From an uncultured Actinomycetota bacterium (lineage in GTDB: Bacteria; Actinomycetota; Actinomycetes; Propionibacteriales; Nocardioidaceae): a stretch of DNA of 64,000 bases. Shown in pieces: positions 1,808 to 47,048 of the stretch; the stretch's first letter is position 1, and every line of letters begins with the position of its first letter. A model generated the notes under the pieces. It saw only the letters and a list, made by a program, of their open reading frames with translations, was not told the origin of the DNA and ran no database searches. Where the stretch lies: contig CAVQEY010000004.1 in NCBI GenBank assembly GCA_963711615.1, positions 38,617 to 102,616 on the forward strand, in the 5' to 3' direction. A program made the translations under genes and the position numbers.

Positions 1808-4800
1808 TCAGGGTTGGGTATGGAGCCCGAGAGCCTGCTCGAGTCCGGCGCGGTCGAGCAGCTCGTCCGCGCCGGGCCGGACTGTCTCGCCGAGCCGGAC
1901 GTAGTAGAACGCCGCCGAGACCCGGTCGAGGTCGACGCCCATGAGCTCGGCCCAGGCCAGCCGGTAGATCGAGAGCTGGAGCGGATCGGCATTCGCCTTC
2001 TCGTTCGTCTTCCAGTCGACGACCTCGTAGCGCTTGCCGCCGTCGGTGTCAGTGGTGGAGAACACCGCGTCGATGCGACCGCCGAACTGCTGACCGCCGA
2101 GGACGAGCGAGAACGGCGCCTCGATCTGCTCCGGCGTACGCGCGGCGAACTCTGACGCAAGGAACGTCTCCTTGAGGCGCTCCAGCTCGGTGTCGTTGTC
2201 GATGCCGGCATCACCGCGGCCGGGCAGGTCGGTGGGGTCGAACAGGCCCACCATGCCGTAGTGGTCCTCGATCCAGGCGTGGAACCGGGTACCGAACCGT
2301 GCCGCCGACGACGGACGTCGCGGCATCGGCCGGGCCAGGCTGCGCGCGAACTCCTCCGGATCCTTCGTCAGAGCCAGCGCCGAGGTGGCCGACATCCTGG
2401 ACGGCCATGGCACGAGACGGACGTCCTGGACGCTCTCGGCGGCCTCGACCGCCAGGAGCTCGAGGTCGTGCTCGAGGGCGGCCAGGCGGTCGAGCTCGGC
2501 CTCGTCCGCCGTGGACGCCTCGGGAACGTCGAGCCGCCCCTCGAGAGCCGCCCGGACGTCGGCGGCCAGAGCACGCCGGCCGTCGAGTCCGGGCCCTGCT
2601 GCCGGCCAGGCGATGCCGTCGGCCTCGACCAGATGCGGATTGGTGGACTCCTGTTCCGGCGGATCGGCCCAGTGGATCGGCTCGATGCCCCGCTCCCCGA
2701 GCCATTCGCGGGTGGTGATGAGGAACTCCGACGGCCCGAGCGGCTTCTGCTGGGTGCGTCCCCAGTAGTGACCGGTGACGGTGAGCCGCCGCGCCGCCCG
2801 GGTGAACGCGACGTAGGCCAGTCGTCGTTCCTCCATCAGGGCGTCCTCGCGGTCGGCCTGCTCGTAGACCTTCTTCGCCGCGGCCGTCCACTCCGCGAGG
2901 GCGGGCAGGCTGTCGGCGTCGCCGCGCAGCGGACCCGGGAGCGTCTGGGCACTGGAGATCCATCGTGACCGTCCGCGCCCCGACGGGAAGATCGTGCGCG
3001 AGACGAGCGGGACGAAGACCGTGGGCCACTCCAGACCCTTGGCCCGGTGGATGGTGAGCAGCTTGACGGAGTCGGACTCCGACGGCGTGGAGACCTCCAT
3101 GCCACCGGCGTAGAAGCGCTCGGCGTCGAGATAGGCGACCAGCCCGGACAGCGAGGCGTACCGATCGGTGTGGGAGTAGTCGGCGATGGCCTCGAGCAGC
3201 AGGGCGATGTTGTCGGCGCCACCCGCGACGTCGCCCGCGGCCAGCTCGAGATCGAGGTCGAGGGCGCGCACTCCCCGGCGGGCGAGGTCGAGCAGCGGAT
3301 CTCCGACGTGGGCGCGCACCGAGGAGACGAGGCGGGAGATCTCCAGGAACCGCGCCAGTGCCTCAGCGGAGAACGGCAGCTCGTCGCCAGGATCGTCGAC
3401 CGCGTCGGCGAGCGAGACGATCTCGGACGGGTCGGTGCCCTCCACGGCGCGTCGCAGCTCGGCCTCGAGCGTCGAGTCGTCGTCGCGGCCGGGCAACCGG
3501 CTGGTGAGCGTGGACGCACGTCGGCCGAGGAGGGCGAGGTCGCGGGGGCCGATGCGCCAGCGTGGGCCGGTGAGCAGCCGCAGCATCGCCGGATTGGCCG
3601 TGACGTCCTCGACGACCTCGAGCAGGGCCAGGAGGTCGAGCACCTCCGGCTGCGAGAGCAGGCCTTCGAGACCGACGATCTCGAAAGGGACATGCGCCTC
3701 GCGGAGTGCCTGGACGATGGCCCCGTTCTCGCGCGCGACCCGCACGAGGATCGCGATGTCGCGCCGGGGTCCGGGCGTGGCGGTGATGGCGTCGATCATC
3801 GCGGTGATCTCGGCGTCGATGGTGTCGTAGAGGCCCACGACGACGCGGCCGCCCGGCGCCGTGGCCGACGCGAGGGGTTGCACCGCCTCGGACGTGGCGT
3901 AGAACGGTGCGGCGATGTGGTTGGCGGCGTCGATGATCTCGGGTGCACAGCGTCGCGTCTCGGTGAGGCTGTACTGACGACCCCGGCTGCCGTCGGCGCG
4001 CGGGAAGTCGTCGAGGAAGTTCTCGAGGTTGCCGACCGCGGCGCCGCGCCAGCCGTAGATGGCCTGCGCGGGGTCGCCGACCGCGGTGACCGGGAAGCCT
4101 CGACCGTTCTCGGCGTCGGGACCGGAGAAGAGCGCCTGCAGCAGGTCGCGCTGCGCCACCGACGTGTCTTGGTACTCGTCGAGCAGGACGATGCCGAACC
4201 GCTCACGCAACACGGCACCCACCTCGGGCAGGAGCGCGAGCCTGGCGCCCCAGGCCATCTGGTCGGAGAAGTCCATCACTCCGTCGTGGGCCTTGCCGGC
4301 GCGGTAGCGGTCGACCAGATGGCTCAGCTCGATGCGCTTGTGCGCCGTGGACGCGGCATCGCGCAGCACGGCCGGCGGCTTGGCGGCCGAGAGGAACTCG
4401 CGGATGACCTCCTCGTCGTGGGCCCGCATGACCTCCGGCTCCACCAGGTGCTCGGACAGCTGGGCGTCGAGGCTCATCGCCTGCGAGACCAGGCTCGGCA
4501 CGTGGGTGGTGACGTCGCGCAGCTCGTCGGGGAACGACTCGATCGCCCGGGCCATGCGCTGGAAGCGGGACGCGTCCGTGACGAGACGCAGGTCGGGCTC
4601 GACGCCGAGGCGAAGGCCGTGCTCGGTGATGAGTGAACCGGCGAATGCGTGGTACGTGGACGTGGTGGGGTCGCCGTCCGCGTCGGCACCGAGCAGCTGC
4701 AGGCTCGCCCGGATGCGCTGCCCGAGCTCGGCCGCCGCCTTGTTGGTGAACGTCAGCCCGAGCACCTGCTCCGGGGGCACGCCGAGGTGACCGACCAGCC

Positions 4801-4960
4801 AGACGACGCGAGCCGCCATGACCGACGTCTTGCCGGACCCCGCGCCGGCGATGATCACACCCGGCTGGTCGAGGCCGGCCGTGATCGCCGTGAGCTGCTG
4901 GTCGGTGAAGCCGATGCCGAGCAGCTCGCAGAGCTGCTGCTCGTCGCGGACGGGATTCAT
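1808..4960 (-). CDS. adnB: ATP-dependent helicase-nuclease subunit B (UvrD-like motor plus RecB-family nuclease)
   Basis: AGAGSGKT, TFTNKAA, DEYQD, VGDPAQAIYGWRGA, TIHRAKGLEW, EERRLAYVAFTRA; C-terminal GRIDAVF...VVDWKT nuclease motifs. Paired with the upstream UvrD-like gene next to nudC. Confidence 0.92.
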   Translation of the reverse strand: MNPVRDEQQLCELLGIGFTDQQLTAITAGLDQPGVIIAGAGSGKTSVMAARVVWLVGHLGVPPEQVLGLTFTNKAAAELGQRIRASLQLLGADADGDPTTSTYHAFAGSLITEHGLRLGVEPDLRLVTDASRFQRMARAIESFPDELRDVTTHVPSLVSQAMSLDAQLSEHLVEPEVMRAHDEEVIREFLSAAKPPAVLRDAASTAHKRIELSHLVDRYRAGKAHDGVMDFSDQMAWGARLALLPEVGAVLRERFGIVLLDEYQDTSVAQRDLLQALFSGPDAENGRGFPVTAVGDPAQAIYGWRGAAVGNLENFLDDFPRADGSRGRQYSLTETRRCAPEIIDAANHIAAPFYATSEAVQPLASATAPGGRVVVGLYDTIDAEITAMIDAITATPGPRRDIAILVRVARENGAIVQALREAHVPFEIVGLEGLLSQPEVLDLLALLEVVEDVTANPAMLRLLTGPRWRIGPRDLALLGRRASTLTSRLPGRDDDSTLEAELRRAVEGTDPSEIVSLADAVDDPGDELPFSAEALARFLEISRLVSSVRAHVGDPLLDLARRGVRALDLDLELAAGDVAGGADNIALLLEAIADYSHTDRYASLSGLVAYLDAERFYAGGMEVSTPSESDSVKLLTIHRAKGLEWPTVFVPLVSRTIFPSGRGRSRWISSAQTLPGPLRGDADSLPALAEWTAAAKKVYEQADREDALMEERRLAYVAFTRAARRLTVTGHYWGRTQQKPLGPSEFLITTREWLGERGIEPIHWADPPEQESTNPHLVEADGIAWPAAGPGLDGRRALAADVRAALEGRLDVPEASTADEAELDRLAALEHDLELLAVEAAESVQDVRLVPWPSRMSATSALALTKDPEEFARSLARPMPRRPSSAARFGTRFHAWIEDHYGMVGLFDPTDLPGRGDAGIDNDTELERLKETFLASEFAARTPEQIEAPFSLVLGGQQFGGRIDAVFSTTDTDGGKRYEVVDWKTNEKANADPLQLSIYRLAWAELMGVDLDRVSAAFYYVRLGETVRPGADELLDRAGLEQALGLHTQP

Positions 4961-7900
4961 CGGACCCGGCCCTCCACGAGGATCGTCGCGCCCTCGTCCT
5001 TGGCCGGACAGACCCGCTGGAACTGGCAGTACTGGCAGGACGTGGTCGACGCCGTGGCCACGAAGTCCTCGTCGTGCAGGGCGTGGACGGAGCGCCGGAG
5101 CTGCTCGACGGCGAAGAACGGCTCATCGGGCCGGGGGCCGTCCTGTGCCTGCACCTTGGGGTAGCCGGGCACGCCGGTCTCGTCGTTGCGCAGCTGCACG
5201 AGCTCGGCGCCAGCCGCACCCGCTGCCTCGACACCCGGGAGGCCCGCGGCAGCGCCGTGCTCGACGGCGAGCTGGTAGAAGCCGAGCTGCGGGTGCTCGG
5301 CGATCTCCTTCGCCTGGGGCGGGTTCTTGGACGTCTTGAGGTCGACGACGTGGACGCCGTCGCCGGACAGCTCGACCCGGTCCATGGAGCCGCGCATCAG
5401 CACCTCACGCCCGTCGACGGCGACCGACACCTCGAACTCGTGCTCCGCCGCGAGGACCTCGCGGCCGTGCTCGCGGTGCCAGCGGCTGAACCGCACGATG
5501 GCGTCGACTGCGGCCTCGTGCTCACGCGCGCCGATCCACTCGGCGGGGTGCTCGAGCTGCGACCAGATGCCGTCGAGGTGCAGCGCCAGCTGGTCGGGGT
5601 CGGCGTCGACGCCGGAACGCACCACCTCGGCGGCGATCGCATGGACGATCGACCCGAACCCCTGCGCGGCCGAGCTGCCGCGCTCGCCGCGCGCCTCGCG
5701 GGCGAGGAACCACTTGAGCGGGCACTCCTCCATCGTGGAGACCGCACTGCCGGACAGGGCGAGCGGCTCGTCGGGATCGCGGATCGGGTCCTCGTTGCTG
5801 GTCAGGTCTCGAAGACCCCACCATCGATCGGGGTGCGCGCCGCTCTGGTGGTCGACGGTGCCGGCCAGCACGCCCGCCGCACGCGCCCGCACCGCCGGGC
5901 TCGTGGCGTTCTCACCGATGCGCCGGAGCTCGGCCACCGCACCGCGCAGCGAGAGCGCTCGACGCGGCCGGTTCTCCGCGACCGGGAAGGTGCGCCCCTC
6001 CTGCTCGGTGACGTGGGCGTGCAGCTCGCCGACGAACCGCGACGGCTGGTCGCCGTCGTCGGAACCGGTCGCCACCGCCGTGACGACCAGCCTGGACCGA
6101 GCACGGCTGCAGGCGACGTAGAACAGGCGTCGCTCCTCGGCGACCATCGCGCGAGCAGACGGAAGGTCGCGGAGCTCACCGGGACCCATGCGTTCGACCT
6201 GGAGGAGGCTGCTGCGCCACCGGGTGTCGGGCCACTCGCCGTCCTGGACACCGGCCACGACGACCAGCGGCCACTCCAGCCCCTTGGCCCGGTGCGCCGT
6301 CATGAGCTGCACCGCGCGGGTGGGCGCTACCTGCTGGGCGAGGGTGTCGGCCGGGATCTGCTGGGCCTCGAGCGCGGTCGCGATCTCCACCACCGAGCGG
6401 TGCGCGTGCTGCTCCTCGGCCCGGGCCGCCTCGGCGAACAGGGCACAGAGCGCATCGAGGTCGTGGTCGGCCTGCACGGCGCCGTCGCCACCGGACTCGG
6501 ACAGCTGGCGCAGTCGGCGGGGCCACTCGGTGCCGTCCCACAACGTCCACAGCACCTGTTCGGCGGGCTCGCCGGCAGCGATGGCGTCGGCCGCTCGTCG
6601 CAGGAGCCGGGCCAGCGTTCGCGCGGACTCGACCGCGTCTCCCTCGGGCGTTCCCGGTATGGACACGGTGCCGAGGACCGCCGGATCGGACAGGGCCTCG
6701 GCCACCAGCAGGCGGGATGGCCGAGGCCGGTCGGGCTCGACCTGACGGAGCACGCGCCCGAGTCGTCGCAGGGAGGCGGCGTCTAGGCCGCCCAGCGGTC
6801 CGGTGAGCAGCGCGGCCGCGGCGGCGGGATCGATCGCCCGGCCGGCGCGGAGGTCGTCGGCGGCATGCAAGGCGGCCAGGAGCGTGCGAACGGACGGCTC
6901 GAGCGCCAGCGGGACCTCGTCGCCCGCCACCTCGACAGGCACACCGGCCGCACCGAGCGCCCGCTGCAGGCGATCGAGGTGCGCGCCCGAGCGCACGAGC
7001 ACCGCCATGTCGGTCCAGGGCACGTCGTCGTGCAGGTGGGCCTCGCGCAGGGTGAGGGCGACGTGCTCGACCTCGGCGGTCGGCGACACGAACGTGCGGA
7101 CCTCGACCGTGCCGGAGTCGTCGACTCGTGAGACCGGCGAGCGCAGGGCCTCGTAGGCGCTGCCGTCGACAGGACCGAGAGCGCCGCGGTTGTGCACGAC
7201 GGACCGGACCGCCGCGCCGATCGTGGGCCCGTAGCGATGGGTGTGCCGCAGGACGACGACCGGAGCGGGACCACCGGCCACGCCGAACTCGTCCTGGAAG
7301 TCGAGGATGCCCCGGACGTCGGCGCCCCGGAACCCGTAGATGGACTGGTACGGATCGCCGACGGCCACGAGGTCGCGCCCATCGCCCGCCAGCGCCCGGA
7401 GGAACCGCACCTGGAGCGGGTCGGTGTCCTGGTACTCGTCGACGACCACGAGCCGGAATCGATTGCGCCAGCGCTCGCGTGTGTCAGCGTGGCCGAGCAG
7501 GCGCACGGCCTGGAAGATCATGTCGGTGTGGTCGATGGTGTTCTCGAGCGCAGCGACCGACGTGTACTCGTCGAAGAAGCGCCCGGCGCTCTGCCAGTCG
7601 TCACGATCGAGATGACGACCGATGGTCTCGACGTCGACCGAGTCCATGCCCAGCGCCCGCGCCGATGCCATCAGCCTCTGCAGCTCCGTGGCCAGCCCGC
7701 GGGTGTGCAGGGCGCCGCGGAGCTCGCGTGGCCAGTCCATGGGGTCGCCGCTGCGCAGCAGCTCCGCGATGGCCGCATCCTGCTCCGGGGCGCTGAGCAG
7801 GCGCATCGGGTTCGTGAACGCCTCGGACGCCTGTTCGTGGCGCAGCAGCGCGTAGCAGAACGCGTGGAACGTCATGGCCGGGGTGGCTGAAGTGGTGCGG

Positions 7901-8178
7901 GCGAGACGCCGCGCGATACGACCGCGAACCTCGTCGGCGGCCTTGCGGCTGAACGTCAGCACGAGCACCTGCTCCGGGCTGAGCCGCTCCCGCTCGATCC
8001 GCTCGACGACGGTCTCGACCACGGTTGTGGTCTTGCCGGTGCCGGGCCCGGCCAGCACCAGCAGCGGCCCACGGTCCGGCGTCGCTCCGTGCTCGACCAC
8101 GGCGCGCTGCTCGTCGTCGAGGGCAGGTGCGACCGCGAGGTCGCGGGCAGCCGGCGGCTGCAGGACGTACTCGGGCAT
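4957..8178 (-). CDS. adnA: ATP-dependent helicase-nuclease subunit A
   Basis: AGPGTGKT, VDEYQD, TAHRAKGLEW, EERRLFYVACSRA; RecB nuclease GSMDRVE...VVDLKT; four Cys (ECP ... CQYC ... CP) consistent with an Fe-S staple. Overlaps adnB by 4 nt. Confidence 0.92.
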   Translation of the reverse strand: MPEYVLQPPAARDLAVAPALDDEQRAVVEHGATPDRGPLLVLAGPGTGKTTTVVETVVERIERERLSPEQVLVLTFSRKAADEVRGRIARRLARTTSATPAMTFHAFCYALLRHEQASEAFTNPMRLLSAPEQDAAIAELLRSGDPMDWPRELRGALHTRGLATELQRLMASARALGMDSVDVETIGRHLDRDDWQSAGRFFDEYTSVAALENTIDHTDMIFQAVRLLGHADTRERWRNRFRLVVVDEYQDTDPLQVRFLRALAGDGRDLVAVGDPYQSIYGFRGADVRGILDFQDEFGVAGGPAPVVVLRHTHRYGPTIGAAVRSVVHNRGALGPVDGSAYEALRSPVSRVDDSGTVEVRTFVSPTAEVEHVALTLREAHLHDDVPWTDMAVLVRSGAHLDRLQRALGAAGVPVEVAGDEVPLALEPSVRTLLAALHAADDLRAGRAIDPAAAAALLTGPLGGLDAASLRRLGRVLRQVEPDRPRPSRLLVAEALSDPAVLGTVSIPGTPEGDAVESARTLARLLRRAADAIAAGEPAEQVLWTLWDGTEWPRRLRQLSESGGDGAVQADHDLDALCALFAEAARAEEQHAHRSVVEIATALEAQQIPADTLAQQVAPTRAVQLMTAHRAKGLEWPLVVVAGVQDGEWPDTRWRSSLLQVERMGPGELRDLPSARAMVAEERRLFYVACSRARSRLVVTAVATGSDDGDQPSRFVGELHAHVTEQEGRTFPVAENRPRRALSLRGAVAELRRIGENATSPAVRARAAGVLAGTVDHQSGAHPDRWWGLRDLTSNEDPIRDPDEPLALSGSAVSTMEECPLKWFLAREARGERGSSAAQGFGSIVHAIAAEVVRSGVDADPDQLALHLDGIWSQLEHPAEWIGAREHEAAVDAIVRFSRWHREHGREVLAAEHEFEVSVAVDGREVLMRGSMDRVELSGDGVHVVDLKTSKNPPQAKEIAEHPQLGFYQLAVEHGAAAGLPGVEAAGAAGAELVQLRNDETGVPGYPKVQAQDGPRPDEPFFAVEQLRRSVHALHDEDFVATASTTSCQYCQFQRVCPAKDEGATILVEGRVR

Positions 8179-8290
8179 GGGCCCATCTCAGCAGACGCTC
8201 CGGACACCCGTGAGCGCTGCCGCGAAATCGCCCGGTTGCCGCTCCGACGGACTCGGCATACGTTGTCGGATGAATCTTGGGGGCTATCCG

Positions 8291-9835
8291 ATGAGCGTCG
8301 AAATCACTGCACCGATGCACGACCGGTTCGACGAGATCCTCACCGACGACGCCTTGACGTTCCTCGAGCGTCTGCACCGCGAGCTCGAGCCGCGTCGGCG
8401 CGAGCTGCTCGAATCCCGCACGCGACGCTTCGAGGAGCTGTCCCACGGCGGCACCCTGCACTTCCTCGACGAGACCAAGGACATCCGTGAGAGCGACTGG
8501 CAGGTCGCCGAACCGGCACCCGGCCTTCGCGACCGTCGCGCCGAGATCACGGGTCCCACCGACGCCAAGATGGCGATCAACGCGCTGAACTCCGGAGCCA
8601 AGGTGTGGCTGGCCGACCACGAGGACGCCAACACCCCGTTGTGGGAGAACATGATCAACGGCCAGCTCAACCTCCGAGACGCGGTCGCCGGAACGCTGGA
8701 GCTCACCACGCCCGAGGGCAAGCAGTACTCCCTCCACGACGAGACCGCGACGATCGTCATGAGGCCACGTGGCTGGCACCTCACCGAGAAGCACGTGCTC
8801 GTCGACGGCGACCGCATGTCGGGAAGCCTGTTCGACTTCGGGCTCTACTTCTTCCACTGCGCCCAGGCCCAGCTCGACCGCGGATCGGGCCCCTACTTCT
8901 ACCTTCCGAAGATCGAGAGCCACCTCGAGGCGCGGCTCTGGAACGACGCCTTCGTGCTGGCCCAGGACCACGTCGGGCTCCCGCAGGGCACCATCCGCGC
9001 CACCGTGCTGATCGAGACGTACCCCGCCGCGTTCGAGATGGAGGAGATCCTCTACGAGCTCCGCGACCACTCGGCCGGGCTCAACGCCGGCCGGTGGGAC
9101 TACATGTTCAGCGTCATCAAGAACTTCCGCGACCGAGGCACGGACTTCCTGCTCCCCGACCGCAACTCGGTGACGATGACCGTCCCGTTCATGCGGGCCT
9201 ACACCGAGCTGCTCGTGCGCACCTGCCACCAGCGCGGCGCGCACGCCATCGGCGGGATGGCGGCCTTCATCCCCAGCAAGGACGAGGACATCAACCGGCA
9301 GGCGTTCGACAAGGTGCGCGACGACAAGACCCGCGAGGCCGGCGACGGCTTCGACGGCTCGTGGGTCGCGCACCCCGGCATGGTCGAGCTGTGCACGGAG
9401 GTGTTCACGTCGGTCCTCGGCGACGACCCCGACCAGCGCCATCGAACCCGCGACGACGTGGACGTCACGGCCGAGCAGCTGCTCGACGTCGCGAGCACGC
9501 CGGGTGAGGTCACCGAAGCCGGGCTGCGGTCGAACATCAGCGTCGGCATCCAGTACCTCGACTCCTGGCTGCGCGGCACCGGCGCAGTCGGCATCAACAA
9601 CCTGATGGAGGATGCCGCAACGGCGGAGATCTCCCGCTCCCAGGTGTGGCAGTGGCTGCACGCGGGCGTGTCGCTCGCCGACGGCCAGCAGGTGACCCGC
9701 GAGCTCGTCGAGCGGCTGATCGACGAGGAGACCGAAGGCCGTGAGTCCGACGCCCGCGCGCTCTTCACGGAGATGGCACTGGCCGAGCACTACGAGGACT
9801 TCCTGACCATCCCGGCGTACGAACGAATGCCCTGA
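8291..9835 (+). CDS. aceB: Malate synthase A
   Basis: EITGPTDAKMAINALNSGAKVWLADHED, RPRGWHL, YFYLPKIESHLEARLWND, GLNAGRWDYMFS, NLMEDAATAEISRSQVWQW. Confidence 0.95.
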   Translation: MSVEITAPMHDRFDEILTDDALTFLERLHRELEPRRRELLESRTRRFEELSHGGTLHFLDETKDIRESDWQVAEPAPGLRDRRAEITGPTDAKMAINALNSGAKVWLADHEDANTPLWENMINGQLNLRDAVAGTLELTTPEGKQYSLHDETATIVMRPRGWHLTEKHVLVDGDRMSGSLFDFGLYFFHCAQAQLDRGSGPYFYLPKIESHLEARLWNDAFVLAQDHVGLPQGTIRATVLIETYPAAFEMEEILYELRDHSAGLNAGRWDYMFSVIKNFRDRGTDFLLPDRNSVTMTVPFMRAYTELLVRTCHQRGAHAIGGMAAFIPSKDEDINRQAFDKVRDDKTREAGDGFDGSWVAHPGMVELCTEVFTSVLGDDPDQRHRTRDDVDVTAEQLLDVASTPGEVTEAGLRSNISVGIQYLDSWLRGTGAVGINNLMEDAATAEISRSQVWQWLHAGVSLADGQQVTRELVERLIDEETEGRESDARALFTEMALAEHYEDFLTIPAYERMP

Positions 9836-43458: not shown

Positions 43459-44514
43459 ATGGCCAAGCATCTGACGCTCGCCGCCGAGCCCCGCTATTTC
43501 AAGGGCTCGAGCGTACAGTCCCGCCTCCTCGGCCTGGGGCTGCGTCACACGGTCCGACCGATCCTCGGGATGTGGGCCCGCCTGCCGTTCGACTTCTATC
43601 CGCCGAACGTGGTCGATCACGCCGCGCGGCTGCTTCCCGTGCCCGAAGGCACCAGCTGGCGCACCGTCGACCTCGGCTCGTGCCCGAGCGAGTGGCTGCT
43701 GGCCAAGGACGTCCGCGACGTCCACGGCGGCAACCCTGGAGCGATCCTGTACTTCCACGGTGGCGCGTTCCTCACCTGTGGCCTCAACACCCACCGCAAC
43801 CTGGTCTCGCGCATCTCGTACGCGGCCGGCCAGCCGGTGCTCAACGTCGGCTACCGGCAGATGCCGCTCGAACCGATCACCGAGTCGGTAGCCGACGGCG
43901 TCGTGGCGTTCCGCTGGCTGCTCGACCAGGGCTACCGGCCCGAGGACATCACCATCGCCGGTGACTCGGCCGGCGGCTACCTCGCCTTCAGCGTCGCCCG
44001 CGCGGTGCTCGACGCCGGCTGGGGACGTCCTGCCGGGGTCGTGGCCATCTCACCACTGCTCGACGTCGACTCCACCCGCAAGCGCAACCACCCGAACGCC
44101 GACCGGTGCCAGGCGTTCCCCATCAACGCGCTCGAGCGCTTCACCCAGCTGGCTCTGCGCACCGACGACCGACGCGGCATCTCCGGCGAGCGCGTCTGCC
44201 CGGTCGACATGCCGGTGGCCGACATGCCGCCGTCCATCATCCAGATCGGGTCCCGCGAGATCCTCATGCCCGACGCCGAGCTGATGGCCAACCGCCTCGT
44301 CGCCGCCGGCATCCCGTGTGACCTGCAGGTCTGGGAGAACCAGGTGCACGTCTTCCAGGCGGCCGCGCACTGGTTGCCCGAGGCCCGTCAGGCGATCGAC
44401 GAGATCGGGTTGTTCGTGCAGTCGCTGGCCAATGGCTCGATCCAGGCGCCGGCGGCCACACGGAAGGCCAAGACGAAGGTCGCCCGCCCCCGCGTCCGCG
44501 CCGCGAGCCATTGA
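43459..44514 (+). CDS. HSL-family esterase/lipase (alpha/beta hydrolase)
   Basis: YFHGGAF oxyanion motif, GDSAGG nucleophile, E-I-L, HVFQ. Confidence 0.9.
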   Translation: MAKHLTLAAEPRYFKGSSVQSRLLGLGLRHTVRPILGMWARLPFDFYPPNVVDHAARLLPVPEGTSWRTVDLGSCPSEWLLAKDVRDVHGGNPGAILYFHGGAFLTCGLNTHRNLVSRISYAAGQPVLNVGYRQMPLEPITESVADGVVAFRWLLDQGYRPEDITIAGDSAGGYLAFSVARAVLDAGWGRPAGVVAISPLLDVDSTRKRNHPNADRCQAFPINALERFTQLALRTDDRRGISGERVCPVDMPVADMPPSIIQIGSREILMPDAELMANRLVAAGIPCDLQVWENQVHVFQAAAHWLPEARQAIDEIGLFVQSLANGSIQAPAATRKAKTKVARPRVRAASH

Positions 44515-44960
44515 GCGACCTCGACCTCGTCTCCGACCTGGCGAAGAAGTCCGGGCTCGTCTGGATCACGGTGCACGACCGCACCTACCCCGTCTGGCAC
44601 GAGCTCGTCGACAGCGCTGACGGTTGGGCAATATGCGTCGTCGGCGGAGGCGGCGAGCAGCCGATCCCCGAGGTCCATGACGACGACAAGGTTCTGCTCC
44701 TGCTGCGATCCAAGACGAATCGTCAGCTGGTCGCGACGGTCGAAGCCACCGTCGAGGTGCTCACGCCCGAGTCCCCGGCCTGGGACGACGTCACCGCGGC
44801 GTTGAAGAGCGGCCGGCTCAACCTGCCCGACTCCGACCACGCGGTCGAGCGGTGGGCCAGCGAGTCGACGGTGCTGCGGCTGGTGCCGCACGAGCCGGTC
44901 ATCCTGGCCAGTGACCTCCCCACCGATCGCCGCCAGACATCACCTCGCCTCTCAGGGTGA
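44511..44960 (+). CDS. Conserved hypothetical protein (split-barrel-like)
   Basis: AKKSGLVWI...PVWH...GEQPIP...LRSK...GRLN; overlaps the esterase stop by 4 nt. Confidence 0.65.
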   Translation: MSDLDLVSDLAKKSGLVWITVHDRTYPVWHELVDSADGWAICVVGGGGEQPIPEVHDDDKVLLLLRSKTNRQLVATVEATVEVLTPESPAWDDVTAALKSGRLNLPDSDHAVERWASESTVLRLVPHEPVILASDLPTDRRQTSPRLSG

Positions 44961-44966
44961 CGCCGC

Positions 44967-46490
44967 TCAGTTGGCCTCGGCCCACGTGCCGTACTCCATC
45001 GGCTTGTCGGTGAGCACGAGATCGGCACCGACATCGTCGGCCTGTTGCCAGAGCGTCGGGGTGTTGACGATCCACATCATCACCTTCATCCCTGCATCGT
45101 TGAGCTCCGACACGTAGGCCTTGGAGATGATGTCGAACTTGACGGCGACGGCGTATAGCCCCTGCTCCGCGAGCGTCCGCTGCCGGCACTGGCGCTCGCC
45201 CGAGATGAACAGCATCGTCCGCAGGTCACCTTCGCCCTGAGCCTCAGCCTCAGCCCGGATCTCGGCCAGCCATCCGGGATCGAATGACGTCACGACAGTC
45301 CGGTCGATCATGCGGGCATTCTTGATCGTCTCCACGAAATGGCGATTCTGACGCGCACCCTGCTCGACCTTCACCTCGGCATAGATCTCGGCGCCCGGAA
45401 TCTTCGCGACCGCTGCGACCCCCTCGGCAAACGTGGGGATGCCGTACTGCTTGCCATCCTTCGATGCGATCGCGGCCGAGCGACACTTCTCCTCAAGCAC
45501 CGACCAGTCGGTCTCTGCGATGATGTGGTTGCCCCCCTCGCACTCCATCCCGGGCGTGGTGCCCGGGTCATGCACGAGGATGGCGACGCCGTCCTTGGAC
45601 CAGCGCACATCGGTCTCGATCTGCGCGCCGATCTTGGCCGCGTGCTCGAATGCGGGAATCGTCTGCCAGGCGAACTCCTCATCACCCCCGCGGTGCGCCA
45701 GCACGATGGGGGCGCCGGACCCACCGAGCTTGGGTGGCGCGGTCGCTTCGGTCGCAGGCGTCGGTCCGTCCGTCGCACCGGCATCCTTCTTCGGATCGTC
45801 CGCCTGAGCGTTGAGCACGATCGCGACCACGACGGCGACCGCCGCGACCGCAGCGCCTACCGACAGCAGAACGCGGCGCGAGACGGTCGGCGATCCGAGC
45901 GGCTTTGGCTTTGTCTCGGCCTTCACCGGCTCCTCGGCGGGCGCCTCGGCGGCAAGCTCCGCCGGAACCTCGACGGCAGGCTCCCCCGCTTGCTCGTCCT
46001 GGATGTCGGCCAGGGTGCGCTCCATGACTTCGAGGAGGCGCTCGGTGTCGGCGCGGAAGCGAGTGGGGCTGAGCTCGAGCGCCTGGCGGCGGACCATCGG
46101 CGCGATGCTGGGCGGCAGCTGGTCGCCCCGCGGCATCAGCGCACCCTCGACCAGGATCGGGATGAGCAGGACCTTCCGCGTGAGCGCGGCCTCGATCTCG
46201 AGCCGGACGAAGTCGTCGGGGTCGTCGAGCCGACGCGACCCGTCCGAGCTGGCGATGTCGAGCCAGTCCTGGCCGATCAGGGCGAGCAGGATGTCGCACG
46301 ACCCGACCGCGTTCGTGATCGTCTCGACGAAGTCGTCGCCGAGCTCGATGGAGTCGACATCCTTGAAGATCTGATCCGCGCCAAACCGCTCGGCGAGGCG
46401 GTCGTACAGCCAGCCGGCAGGGTAGGCCGAGTCCTGCCGGCGGTAGCTGATGAAGATCCGGCCGGTCGCTTCGGACGCTGAGTCGGTCAT
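44967..46490 (-). CDS. TIR domain - TM - glycerophosphodiester phosphodiesterase (GDPD) fusion
   Basis: N-terminal IFISYRRQDS...LYDRL...FG...IFKDVDSIELGDDF...FVRLEIEAAL; TM RRVLLSVGAAVAAVAVVVAIVL; C-terminal LAHRG...IETDV..SKDG..ILVHD...EVK...VVTSF...WIVN...LTDKP. Confidence 0.88.
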   Translation of the reverse strand: MTDSASEATGRIFISYRRQDSAYPAGWLYDRLAERFGADQIFKDVDSIELGDDFVETITNAVGSCDILLALIGQDWLDIASSDGSRRLDDPDDFVRLEIEAALTRKVLLIPILVEGALMPRGDQLPPSIAPMVRRQALELSPTRFRADTERLLEVMERTLADIQDEQAGEPAVEVPAELAAEAPAEEPVKAETKPKPLGSPTVSRRVLLSVGAAVAAVAVVVAIVLNAQADDPKKDAGATDGPTPATEATAPPKLGGSGAPIVLAHRGGDEEFAWQTIPAFEHAAKIGAQIETDVRWSKDGVAILVHDPGTTPGMECEGGNHIIAETDWSVLEEKCRSAAIASKDGKQYGIPTFAEGVAAVAKIPGAEIYAEVKVEQGARQNRHFVETIKNARMIDRTVVTSFDPGWLAEIRAEAEAQGEGDLRTMLFISGERQCRQRTLAEQGLYAVAVKFDIISKAYVSELNDAGMKVMMWIVNTPTLWQQADDVGADLVLTDKPMEYGTWAEAN

Positions 46491-46571
46491 CGTGCGCACT
46501 TCCTGCGTGTCCCCGAGTTCCCCGTCTACCATATGGGGGCGCGACCCCCCTACTAGGAAGAATGCGGCGAA

Positions 46572-47048
46572 ATGCTCGACTGGCTGGCCCGCAACACCGA
46601 CCTCGTGGCACTGTTCCTCGCCGTCGTCGGCATGTGCGTCAGCCTCGTCACGGTGTGGCTCTCGGTTCGCAACGCACGTCTGGTCGCGTACACCCGGATG
46701 CACGAGATGCTGGTCTCCTCCGATACCGCCCGAGGGCGGCGCATCCTCTTCCTGGCGCACGCCAAGCACGAGCTGCCGGAACCGGGCGATGCCGACTGGG
46801 ACGCCATCAACCAGTCCCTGGCCGTGTACGACACGCTCGCCGTCTACATGCGACGGCGGATCGTCAGTCACCGGCTCGTGCTCAGCGCCTGGTTCCATCC
46901 GCTGACCGCGATCCACGCGCCGGCAGACGCGTGGGTGAAGCACCGCGCCCTCCACGGCGTCCGGAACCCGTGGGCCAACCTCAGCTGGCTGCTCGACCGC
47001 GCGGAGCAGTATCACGCCAAGCAGGGGTGCTGCACCGAGGACGCGTGA
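46572..47048 (+). CDS. Small membrane protein, DUF4760-like
   Basis: N-terminal TM, then a helical domain with INQSLAVYDTLAVYMRRRIV...W. Family recalled from the pattern only. Confidence 0.55.
   Translation: MLDWLARNTDLVALFLAVVGMCVSLVTVWLSVRNARLVAYTRMHEMLVSSDTARGRRILFLAHAKHELPEPGDADWDAINQSLAVYDTLAVYMRRRIVSHRLVLSAWFHPLTAIHAPADAWVKHRALHGVRNPWANLSWLLDRAEQYHAKQGCCTEDA

Follow-up and report, generated by a model that had tools for sequence, protein, structure and literature searches.

TIR enzymes are usually switched on by coming together, and in the bacterial TIR systems of which we are aware the TIR protein is soluble and senses infection inside the cell. Type VII Thoeris, a type defined in December 2025, combines a TIR protein with a SLATT protein: when phage infects, the TIR protein ThsB makes canonical cyclic ADP-ribose (cADPR), and ThsH, which carries the SLATT domain, acts as effector. 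The system is reported from several phyla, Actinomycetota included (Yirmiya et al., bioRxiv 10.64898/2025.12.03.692087). Here we analyze a related locus in a 64,000-nucleotide stretch of contig CAVQEY010000004.1 (the window) from an uncultured soil member of the Nocardioidaceae. One gene encodes an N-terminal TIR domain, a predicted transmembrane (TM) helix and a predicted extracytoplasmic glycerophosphodiester phosphodiesterase (GDPD) domain; a divergent gene beside it encodes a small membrane protein related to DUF4760. Together they probably represent an undescribed outside-sensing variant of TIR immune signaling. That the two genes act as a Thoeris-like, outside-in signaling pair, combining a new form of receptor with a new candidate partner, has in our judgment about an even chance of being correct.

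The TIR-TM-GDPD gene occupies 44967..46490 on the minus strand (stop codon included) and translates into 507 amino acids (aa) with no internal stops. Pfam assigns residues 12-122 to TIR_2 (PF13676; E-value 5.8e-12, 46.6 bits vs. a cut-off of 28) and residues 266-497 to GDPD (PF03009; E-value 1.2e-22, 81.6 bits vs. a cut-off of 23.6). An AGGAAG ribosome site lies 8 nt upstream of the ATG at 46490, and the start is at or near the same MTD in 29 of 29 aligned TIR-GDPD homologs (44-83% identity). A longer frame of 682 aa (44967..47015) was rejected as the gene because the homologs begin at MTD and the upstream extension is antisense to the conserved DUF4760 gene. This antisense frame (46491-47015, minus strand) stays open and has a gene-like GC3 score (GC content at third codon positions), so simple callers of open reading frames add it to the TIR gene, which then reads as 682 aa, and miss the partner gene beneath it.

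AlphaFold2, run on the alignment of 29 sequences (mean predicted local distance difference test, pLDDT, of 82), gives the order of the parts as an alpha/beta TIR domain modeled with confidence (12-168), an acidic linker that is disordered, one long helix (206-227), a second disordered stretch and a TIM barrel, again modeled with confidence (262-506). On the window, all on the minus strand, the predicted cytoplasmic, SARM1-like TIR domain lies at 45987..46463 (residues 10-168; Pfam, AlphaFold2 and a profile search of the PDB), the Pro/Ala/Glu-rich linker, ending in RR, at 45876..45986 (residues 169-205; pLDDT, alignment and substitution rates), the single helix, predicted N-in/C-out, at 45810..45875 (residues 206-227; AlphaFold2 helix, hydropathy and positive-inside count), and the predicted extracytoplasmic GDPD TIM barrel at 44973..45707 (residues 262-506; Pfam, PDB sequence matches, Foldseek and catalytic residues). 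Ratios of non-synonymous to synonymous substitution rates (dN/dS) within the window’s clade are 0.22 for the TIR, 0.59 for linker and helix, 0.36 for the GDPD and 0.23 for the DUF4760 protein, and by this measure all parts of the pair are under purifying selection.

The linker (~169-205) has a pLDDT below 50 and varies in length and sequence among homologs. Hydropathy peaks at 207-225, with RR204-205 just before, and the protein has no N-terminal signal sequence. Averaged over the 29 homologs, the 15 residues on the N-terminal side of the TM helix hold 3.6 Lys+Arg and those on the C-terminal side 1.6, with net charges of +2.5 before and -0.3 after the helix; by the positive-inside rule, therefore, the TIR is placed in the cytoplasm and the GDPD outside. 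The predictions fit a single-pass, N-in/C-out protein, and two invariant cysteines of the outer domain (C317 and C336) fit an extracytoplasmic location. A first-pass annotation, made from the sequence without database searches, had proposed a TIR_2 domain, an acidic linker, one RR-preceded TM helix and a GDPD domain with N-in/C-out topology and retained catalytic residues. Translation, Pfam, alignment and AlphaFold2 bear out the architecture, the topology agrees with the predicted helix and charge count, and the residues proved invariant (Glu98 of the TIR) or nearly so (the GDPD set) in the 29 homologs.

In the GDPD domain H266, R267, E292, D294, D308, E372 and K374 do not vary among the 29 homologs, and at least 90% of these keep H307. 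Through alignment with 2pz0, H266, R267, E292, D294, H307, E372 and K374 correspond to H17, R18, E44, D46, H59, E119 and K121 of the Thermoanaerobacter enzyme (ttGDPD), which are its catalytic His pair, an Arg, the metal-binding Glu/Asp/Glu and a Lys. The modeled barrel superimposes on 2pz0 with a TM-score of 0.91 (Foldseek, E-value 9e-18); other matches include Bacillus subtilis GlpQ, the Staphylococcus aureus lysophosphatidylglycerol phospholipase D and GDPD domains of staphylococcal phage baseplates. Where ordinary GDPDs have a PENT motif after HRG, this protein has AWQT and the family as a whole [WL][QE]T. Phosphodiesterase chemistry thus looks intact, with an altered substrate pocket.

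The TIR domain is modeled with a beta/alpha pattern and pLDDT values mostly of 80-95. Searched as a profile against all PDB sequences, the TIR module matched only SARM1 and Caenorhabditis elegans TIR-1 chains below an E-value of 0.01 (best 2.2e-8), and the alignment spans the whole domain. Box 1 reads FISYRR in both this family and SARM1, the BB-loop sequence DSIELG lies opposite EKLEAG, and DFVRLE aligns with DWVHKE, which puts Phe94 on the SARM1 Trp and Glu98 on the SARM1 Glu that we take to be catalytic E642 (Essuman et al. 2017). Glu98 (FVRLE98IE; codon at 46197..46199, minus strand) is the predicted catalytic glutamate. It is invariant in the 29 TIR-GDPD homologs, in 51 relatives with a different C-terminal part (50 genome loci and one paralog in the window’s genome) and in a 30-sequence TIR-only alignment; Glu100, the second Glu of the motif, is not. 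Gly51 in the BB loop is also invariant. By alignment, then, the domain has the conserved SARM1-position Glu and intact pocket of catalytic (NADase-type) TIR domains. This similarity is worth noting because a 2020 survey of TIR domains sought bacterial homologs of SARM1 and found none (PMC7075850). The family resemblance implies neither direction of direct descent between the two groups.

The architecture is not rare. A protein search returned more than 100 full-length TIR_2+GDPD proteins in public data (40-96% identity), from Aeromicrobium, Propionibacteriaceae and other Actinomycetota, which are named, if at all, GDPD family proteins. A literature search found no publication on TIR+GDPD proteins or on this actinobacterial TIR family (one match on ‘Tir’ proved to concern CesT/Tir chaperones). 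A pattern scan of one genome per species yielded 496 loci that encode something related to the TIR module; of these, the 80 best were examined. About 24 of these 80 encode TIR-GDPD proteins; the remainder join the same TIR to another C-terminal part (TIR-TM-X). The TIR domains of the non-GDPD relatives are about 60-73% identical over ~165 residues, and Pfam finds TIR_2 in 51 of 51, followed by WD40/PD40/Kelch propellers, DPPIV_N or nothing known. Further outer domains include a trypsin-like protease (L148) and multi-TM regions, and of the 72 proteins that are complete, 69 have at least one predicted TM segment after the TIR. When 1.84 billion cluster representatives were searched with a profile, 18,233 clusters passed E ≤ 1e-30, and in almost all of them the TIR is N-terminal.

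No part of these proteins is better conserved than the TIR, which is 52-80% identical among the sampled actinobacterial loci. Since one TIR is joined to many outer domains, the TIR is the constant part of the family and the outer domain the part that is swapped. This is the opposite of a scenario raised at first pass, in which the TIR would be a variably lost appendage. In a TIR tree without an outgroup root, the DUF4760-linked clade clusters with other TIR-TM-X proteins, and a branch with 100/100 support lies between it and the GDPD clade linked to SLATT. This tree does not show a single origin of the TIR-GDPD fusion; an old fusion and domain shuffling are both compatible with it. In two long-read metagenome bins the TIR-GDPD gene is broken, by a frameshift after residue ~21 in L040 (6001-7500) and as a 378-aa truncated call in L147 (4001-5137). 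These breaks are either assembly errors or decay, and they account for database entries with GDPD or TIR alone.

Precomputed Pfam calls showed SLATT/DUF4231 proteins adjoining distant TIR-GDPD relatives (~43% identity), and adjacency was counted with hidden Markov models built from such neighbors in a six-frame scan of the best 80 loci. A small membrane protein adjoins the TIR-GDPD gene at 22 of the 24 loci: SLATT at 14 and DUF4760, divergent from the TIR gene, at 8 (including the window), with neither at 2. Half of the SLATT-linked loci (7/14) have a SLATT gene on each side, the upstream one encoding a tandem SLATT_3-SLATT_1 protein of 303 aa. SLATT also adjoins 10 of the 56 other TIR-TM-X loci, often directly downstream on the same strand. 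Neither GDPD nor DUF4760 is mentioned in the type VII Thoeris paper or in four supplements to it (bioRxiv 10.64898/2025.12.03.692087).

The partner gene in the window (46572..47048, plus strand) encodes a divergent DUF4760 member of 158 aa, identified by Pfam, co-occurrence with the TIR gene and AlphaFold2. Its match to DUF4760 (PF15956) is barely above threshold (25.8 bits vs. a cut-off of 25), and eight of eight clade members match, the best with an E-value of 1.3e-6. The model is all helical (pLDDT 91.6). One TM helix is predicted at the N-terminus (residues 12-30), with flanking charges that place the helical C-terminal domain in the cytoplasm, and a GCC motif near the C-terminal end is conserved. 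A fold search gave no PDB or viral match at E < 0.001, PHROGs gave no match, and a literature search on DUF4760 found nothing relevant. The EDS1-PAD4 complex binds TIR products; a likeness of the partner to it (8zwa_B, E-value 1.0, TM-score 0.55) was not significant. A second, more typical DUF4760 gene occurs in the window’s genome (G000:C18:10925-11323; L124 1438-1938, minus strand; E-value 3e-12), where it adjoins an AMP-binding enzyme with no TIR nearby. No RyR or SLOG protein was seen with the pair in the window.

The two genes share an 81-bp divergent intergenic region (46491..46571, unstranded) that, in an alignment of eight loci, holds both ribosome sites and a conserved CCATATGGTAGA block. 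No sigma-70 consensus was found there, and scans for promoter and terminator consensus sequences gave no match. Beside the conserved block is a short inverted repeat, GGGGGGTCGCGCCCCC (46520-46545), a putative operator that could serve both genes.

Several observations tie the partner to the TIR module. Among 117 genomes of the genus, the TIR module is present in 11 and the DUF4760 partner in 11, and the two are adjacent and divergent in the same 10. In genome G107 a single gap, which we read as one deletion, covers the TIR gene and reaches through two thirds of the DUF4760 gene from its 5' end, so that a remnant of 66 codons is left. At L046 the TIR-GDPD/DUF4760 pair is intact with both flanks non-syntenic. 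On an unrelated metagenomic contig of 61% GC (L148), a 65%-identical DUF4760 gene lies 3 bp from a TIR-TM-trypsin gene of the family. On the strength of this adjacency, the joint gap, L046, L148 and a genome (93% complete) in which neither SLATT_1 nor DUF4231 was found, we read the window’s DUF4760 subfamily, the only one that is TIR-linked, as functionally linked to the TIR module, holding the place that SLATT takes elsewhere. L148 itself (1997-8522) has four TIR genes around its one DUF4760 gene (a TIR-TM-Trypsin_2 protein of 575 aa, a double-TIR protein of 578 aa, a 683-aa TIR protein and a weak 338-aa match) and looks like an array of receptor paralogs.

The carriers of the pair are closely related. 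Alanine dehydrogenase is at least 91% identical to the window’s copy in 11 genomes of the genus and at most 80% identical in the rest; these 11 are the ten pair carriers and G107. The ancestor of one subclade therefore had the pair, which has since been lost a single time, and a patchy horizontal scatter in the genus was rejected, since the carriers are exactly one subclade less one deletion. Across the subclade flanking genes share 84-96% identity, compared with 63-78% for the TIR-GDPD protein. Between the Lrp gene and a 149-aa gene lies a variable spot that can carry one more TIR-X gene (G116), a YdeP-like molybdopterin oxidoreductase or FG-GAP/RTX proteins. The 149-aa gene (44511-44960, plus strand) belongs to no Pfam, NCBIfam or PHROGs family; its start overlaps the stop of an Abhydrolase_3 gene (ATGA), and its product is conserved at 64-83% across the subclade, with or without the TIR pair.

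The reading we favor draws on the observed architecture, predicted topology, conserved catalytic residues, family structure and gene linkage. The outer GDPD domain would bind or cleave an envelope phosphodiester, such as a teichoic-type polymer or lipid head group, or sense a change in one. Ligand engagement would cluster the receptor and bring the TIR domains together under the membrane, where they would cleave NAD+. The product would most likely be canonical cADPR (or ADP-ribose), as for the TIR domains of SARM1 and type VII Thoeris. The adjoining membrane protein would respond to this product, SLATT by forming a pore and DUF4760 in an analogous way. The most likely role would be defense against phage or another envelope-directed attack, with the signal taken outside the cell. 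A coupling of the outer domain to a TIR output had been proposed by the first-pass annotation and gains support from the SLATT-adjoining relatives and from the neighborhood analysis, which shows 46572-47048 to be a faithful partner of the TIR gene. The accompanying link to a nearby CDP-polyol/glycan island is not supported, because the pair occurs without the island at L046 and L148, with quite different flanks, and relatives show no conserved link. A broader proposal, which we hold to be less likely than not, is that Actinobacteria have a very large undescribed family of transmembrane TIR receptors. In these, one conserved SARM1-like TIR enzyme would be linked by a single TM helix to interchangeable outer domains (GDPD, trypsin, beta-propellers and others) that read cues outside the cell, and a cADPR-type signal would pass to SLATT or DUF4760 effectors; such a family would also include candidate bacterial relatives of the SARM1 TIR.

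A number of findings weigh against the signaling pair. Conservation of the TIR is unusually high for an immune protein, and the pair is, to judge from the genomes compared, inherited vertically in one subclade and not scattered. The surrounding genes are metabolic (Lrp, alanine dehydrogenase, a hydrolase and WS/DGAT) and do not look like a defense island; Pfam and PADLOC found no known defense genes near the pair in the window, and PADLOC and NCBIfam gave only weak, partial ThsB-type matches. The two genes are divergent and form no operon. The window locus has no SLATT and so lacks the gene content that defines type VII Thoeris. Nor is DUF4760 a disguised SLATT (hhalign probability 1.2%) or a general partner of TIR proteins, as 23 other actinobacterial DUF4760 loci have mixed neighbors and no TIR. 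Finally, the replacement of PENT by AWQT implies that the substrate may not be a glycerophosphodiester.

The main rival, which we consider unlikely, makes the GDPD the working part of a housekeeping ecto-phosphodiesterase that acts on the outer side of the membrane, scavenging phosphate or turning over teichoic-type polymers or lipid head groups. The TIR would then be a cytoplasmic oligomerization or regulatory module (e.g., tying enzyme activity or stability to NAD+ levels), and the DUF4760 protein a structural partner or an unrelated small membrane protein kept by synteny. Invariant catalytic residues and purifying selection on the GDPD, a metabolic and syntenic context, vertical inheritance in one subclade and a very conserved TIR are all in keeping with such an enzyme, and the solved relatives GlpQ and S. 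aureus lysophosphatidylglycerol phospholipase D are envelope housekeeping enzymes. However, the outer domains found with this one TIR are many and unrelated (propellers, trypsin, multi-TM), which makes the TIR, and not the GDPD, the common function. In addition, the catalytic Glu and SARM1-type pocket residues are invariant, a SLATT effector adjoins 14 of the 24 orthologous loci, and the gene is dispensable: G107 has lost it by deletion, and of the 117 genomes of the genus 106 others showed no copy.

An alternative that retains the TIR as the active part is a self-contained sensor-killer in the manner of SARM1, in which a cue sensed by the outer domain would set the TIR consuming NAD+ until the cell no longer grows, with no need of a diffusible signal or partner; the neighboring membrane proteins would be accessory, for example holding the receptor in check or protecting the cell from it. 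Among solved structures the nearest are the NAD-depleting SARM1 and TIR-1, two of the 24 TIR-GDPD loci and most other TIR-TM-X loci have no SLATT or DUF4760 neighbor, and the Thoeris survey set stand-alone TIRs aside as likely NAD-depleting effectors (bioRxiv 10.64898/2025.12.03.692087). We nevertheless regard this alternative as quite improbable, given that a small membrane partner adjoins 22 of the 24 TIR-GDPD loci, that the DUF4760-TIR link recurs in an unrelated context (L148), and that SLATT is an established signal-responsive effector in type VII Thoeris.

Other TIR arrangements were seen in passing. The window’s genome has a second copy of the TIR module, 55-60% identical (G000:C1:13132-14922; L013 5133-6923, plus strand), with no membrane helix and fused to DUF6416 and a C-terminal zinc ribbon; directly after it (L013 6937-7776) is a membrane-anchored GmrSD_C protein (DUF1524-type nuclease), and the two may form a separate TIR-plus-nuclease pair. 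In one well-supported clade of TIR-TM-X genes from Gaiellaceae and other Actinomycetes (L073, L077, L095, L109, L113 and L117, at ~5500-8400), the upstream neighbor at 4 loci encodes a small NUDIX hydrolase, and a convergent gene for an EamA-type transporter lies downstream at 7 loci in all. As ADP-ribose compounds are substrates of NUDIX enzymes, this may be another TIR-linked module. In another species of the genus, a TIR type 49% identical is fused to an NB-ARC/STAND NTPase (L004 840-2786; G024:C99), an arrangement like that of plant TNL or Avs proteins.

If the favored reading is correct, TIR signaling in bacteria can run from outside in and, as in animals, start at the cell surface. The family would offer a simple model for how ligand-driven clustering switches on a SARM1-type TIR, its swappable outer domains would amount to a catalog of the envelope cues that Actinobacteria watch, and the DUF4760 protein would be a candidate new effector or partner in TIR signaling. 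The SARM1 similarity of the family also bears on the old question of the origin of the animal NADase.

The outer domain has its counterparts in extracytoplasmic GDPDs that act at the Gram-positive envelope (GlpQ, the S. aureus enzyme and the phage K gp155/phi812 spike domains). It shares their TIM barrel and His/Arg/Glu/Asp/His/Glu/Lys set, and differs in its low identity (17-24%), in [WL][QE]T in place of PENT, in the Cys pair and in its fusion to a TM helix and TIR. The TIR resembles the animal NAD+ hydrolase domain of SARM1/TIR-1 in box 1, BB-loop pattern, the Phe/Trp position and catalytic Glu; identity is modest, the ARM and SAM domains are absent, and the TIR here is N-terminal and membrane-tethered. 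The whole protein recalls Toll-like and IL-1 receptors, which are also single-pass, with a variable outer domain, a cytoplasmic TIR and many paralogs with swapped outer domains. The predicted succession of outer sensor, one TM helix and cytoplasmic TIR is Toll-like in reversed order (TIR N-terminal, outer domain C-terminal), with no signal peptide, a TIR whose predicted role is enzymatic and not that of a scaffold, and a hydrolase fold outside in place of leucine-rich repeats or immunoglobulin domains.

The closest system is type VII Thoeris. In both, a TIR protein with the catalytic Glu is encoded beside a small membrane effector (here a candidate), SLATT (including tandem SLATT_3-SLATT_1) stands at 14 of the 24 orthologous TIR-GDPD loci, and the TIR is of the SARM1-like type known to make canonical cADPR. 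The pair in the window differs in that its TIR protein is a predicted single-pass membrane protein with a large, predicted enzymatic outer domain, in that DUF4760 replaces SLATT, and in that its neighbors are metabolic genes, although the locus is a variable spot. As the window has no SLATT, we do not file the pair as a member of type VII Thoeris. Its apparently new elements are the receptor form of the TIR protein, with a TM helix and outer enzyme domain, and the DUF4760 partner; by analogy, the pair most likely works like type VII Thoeris.

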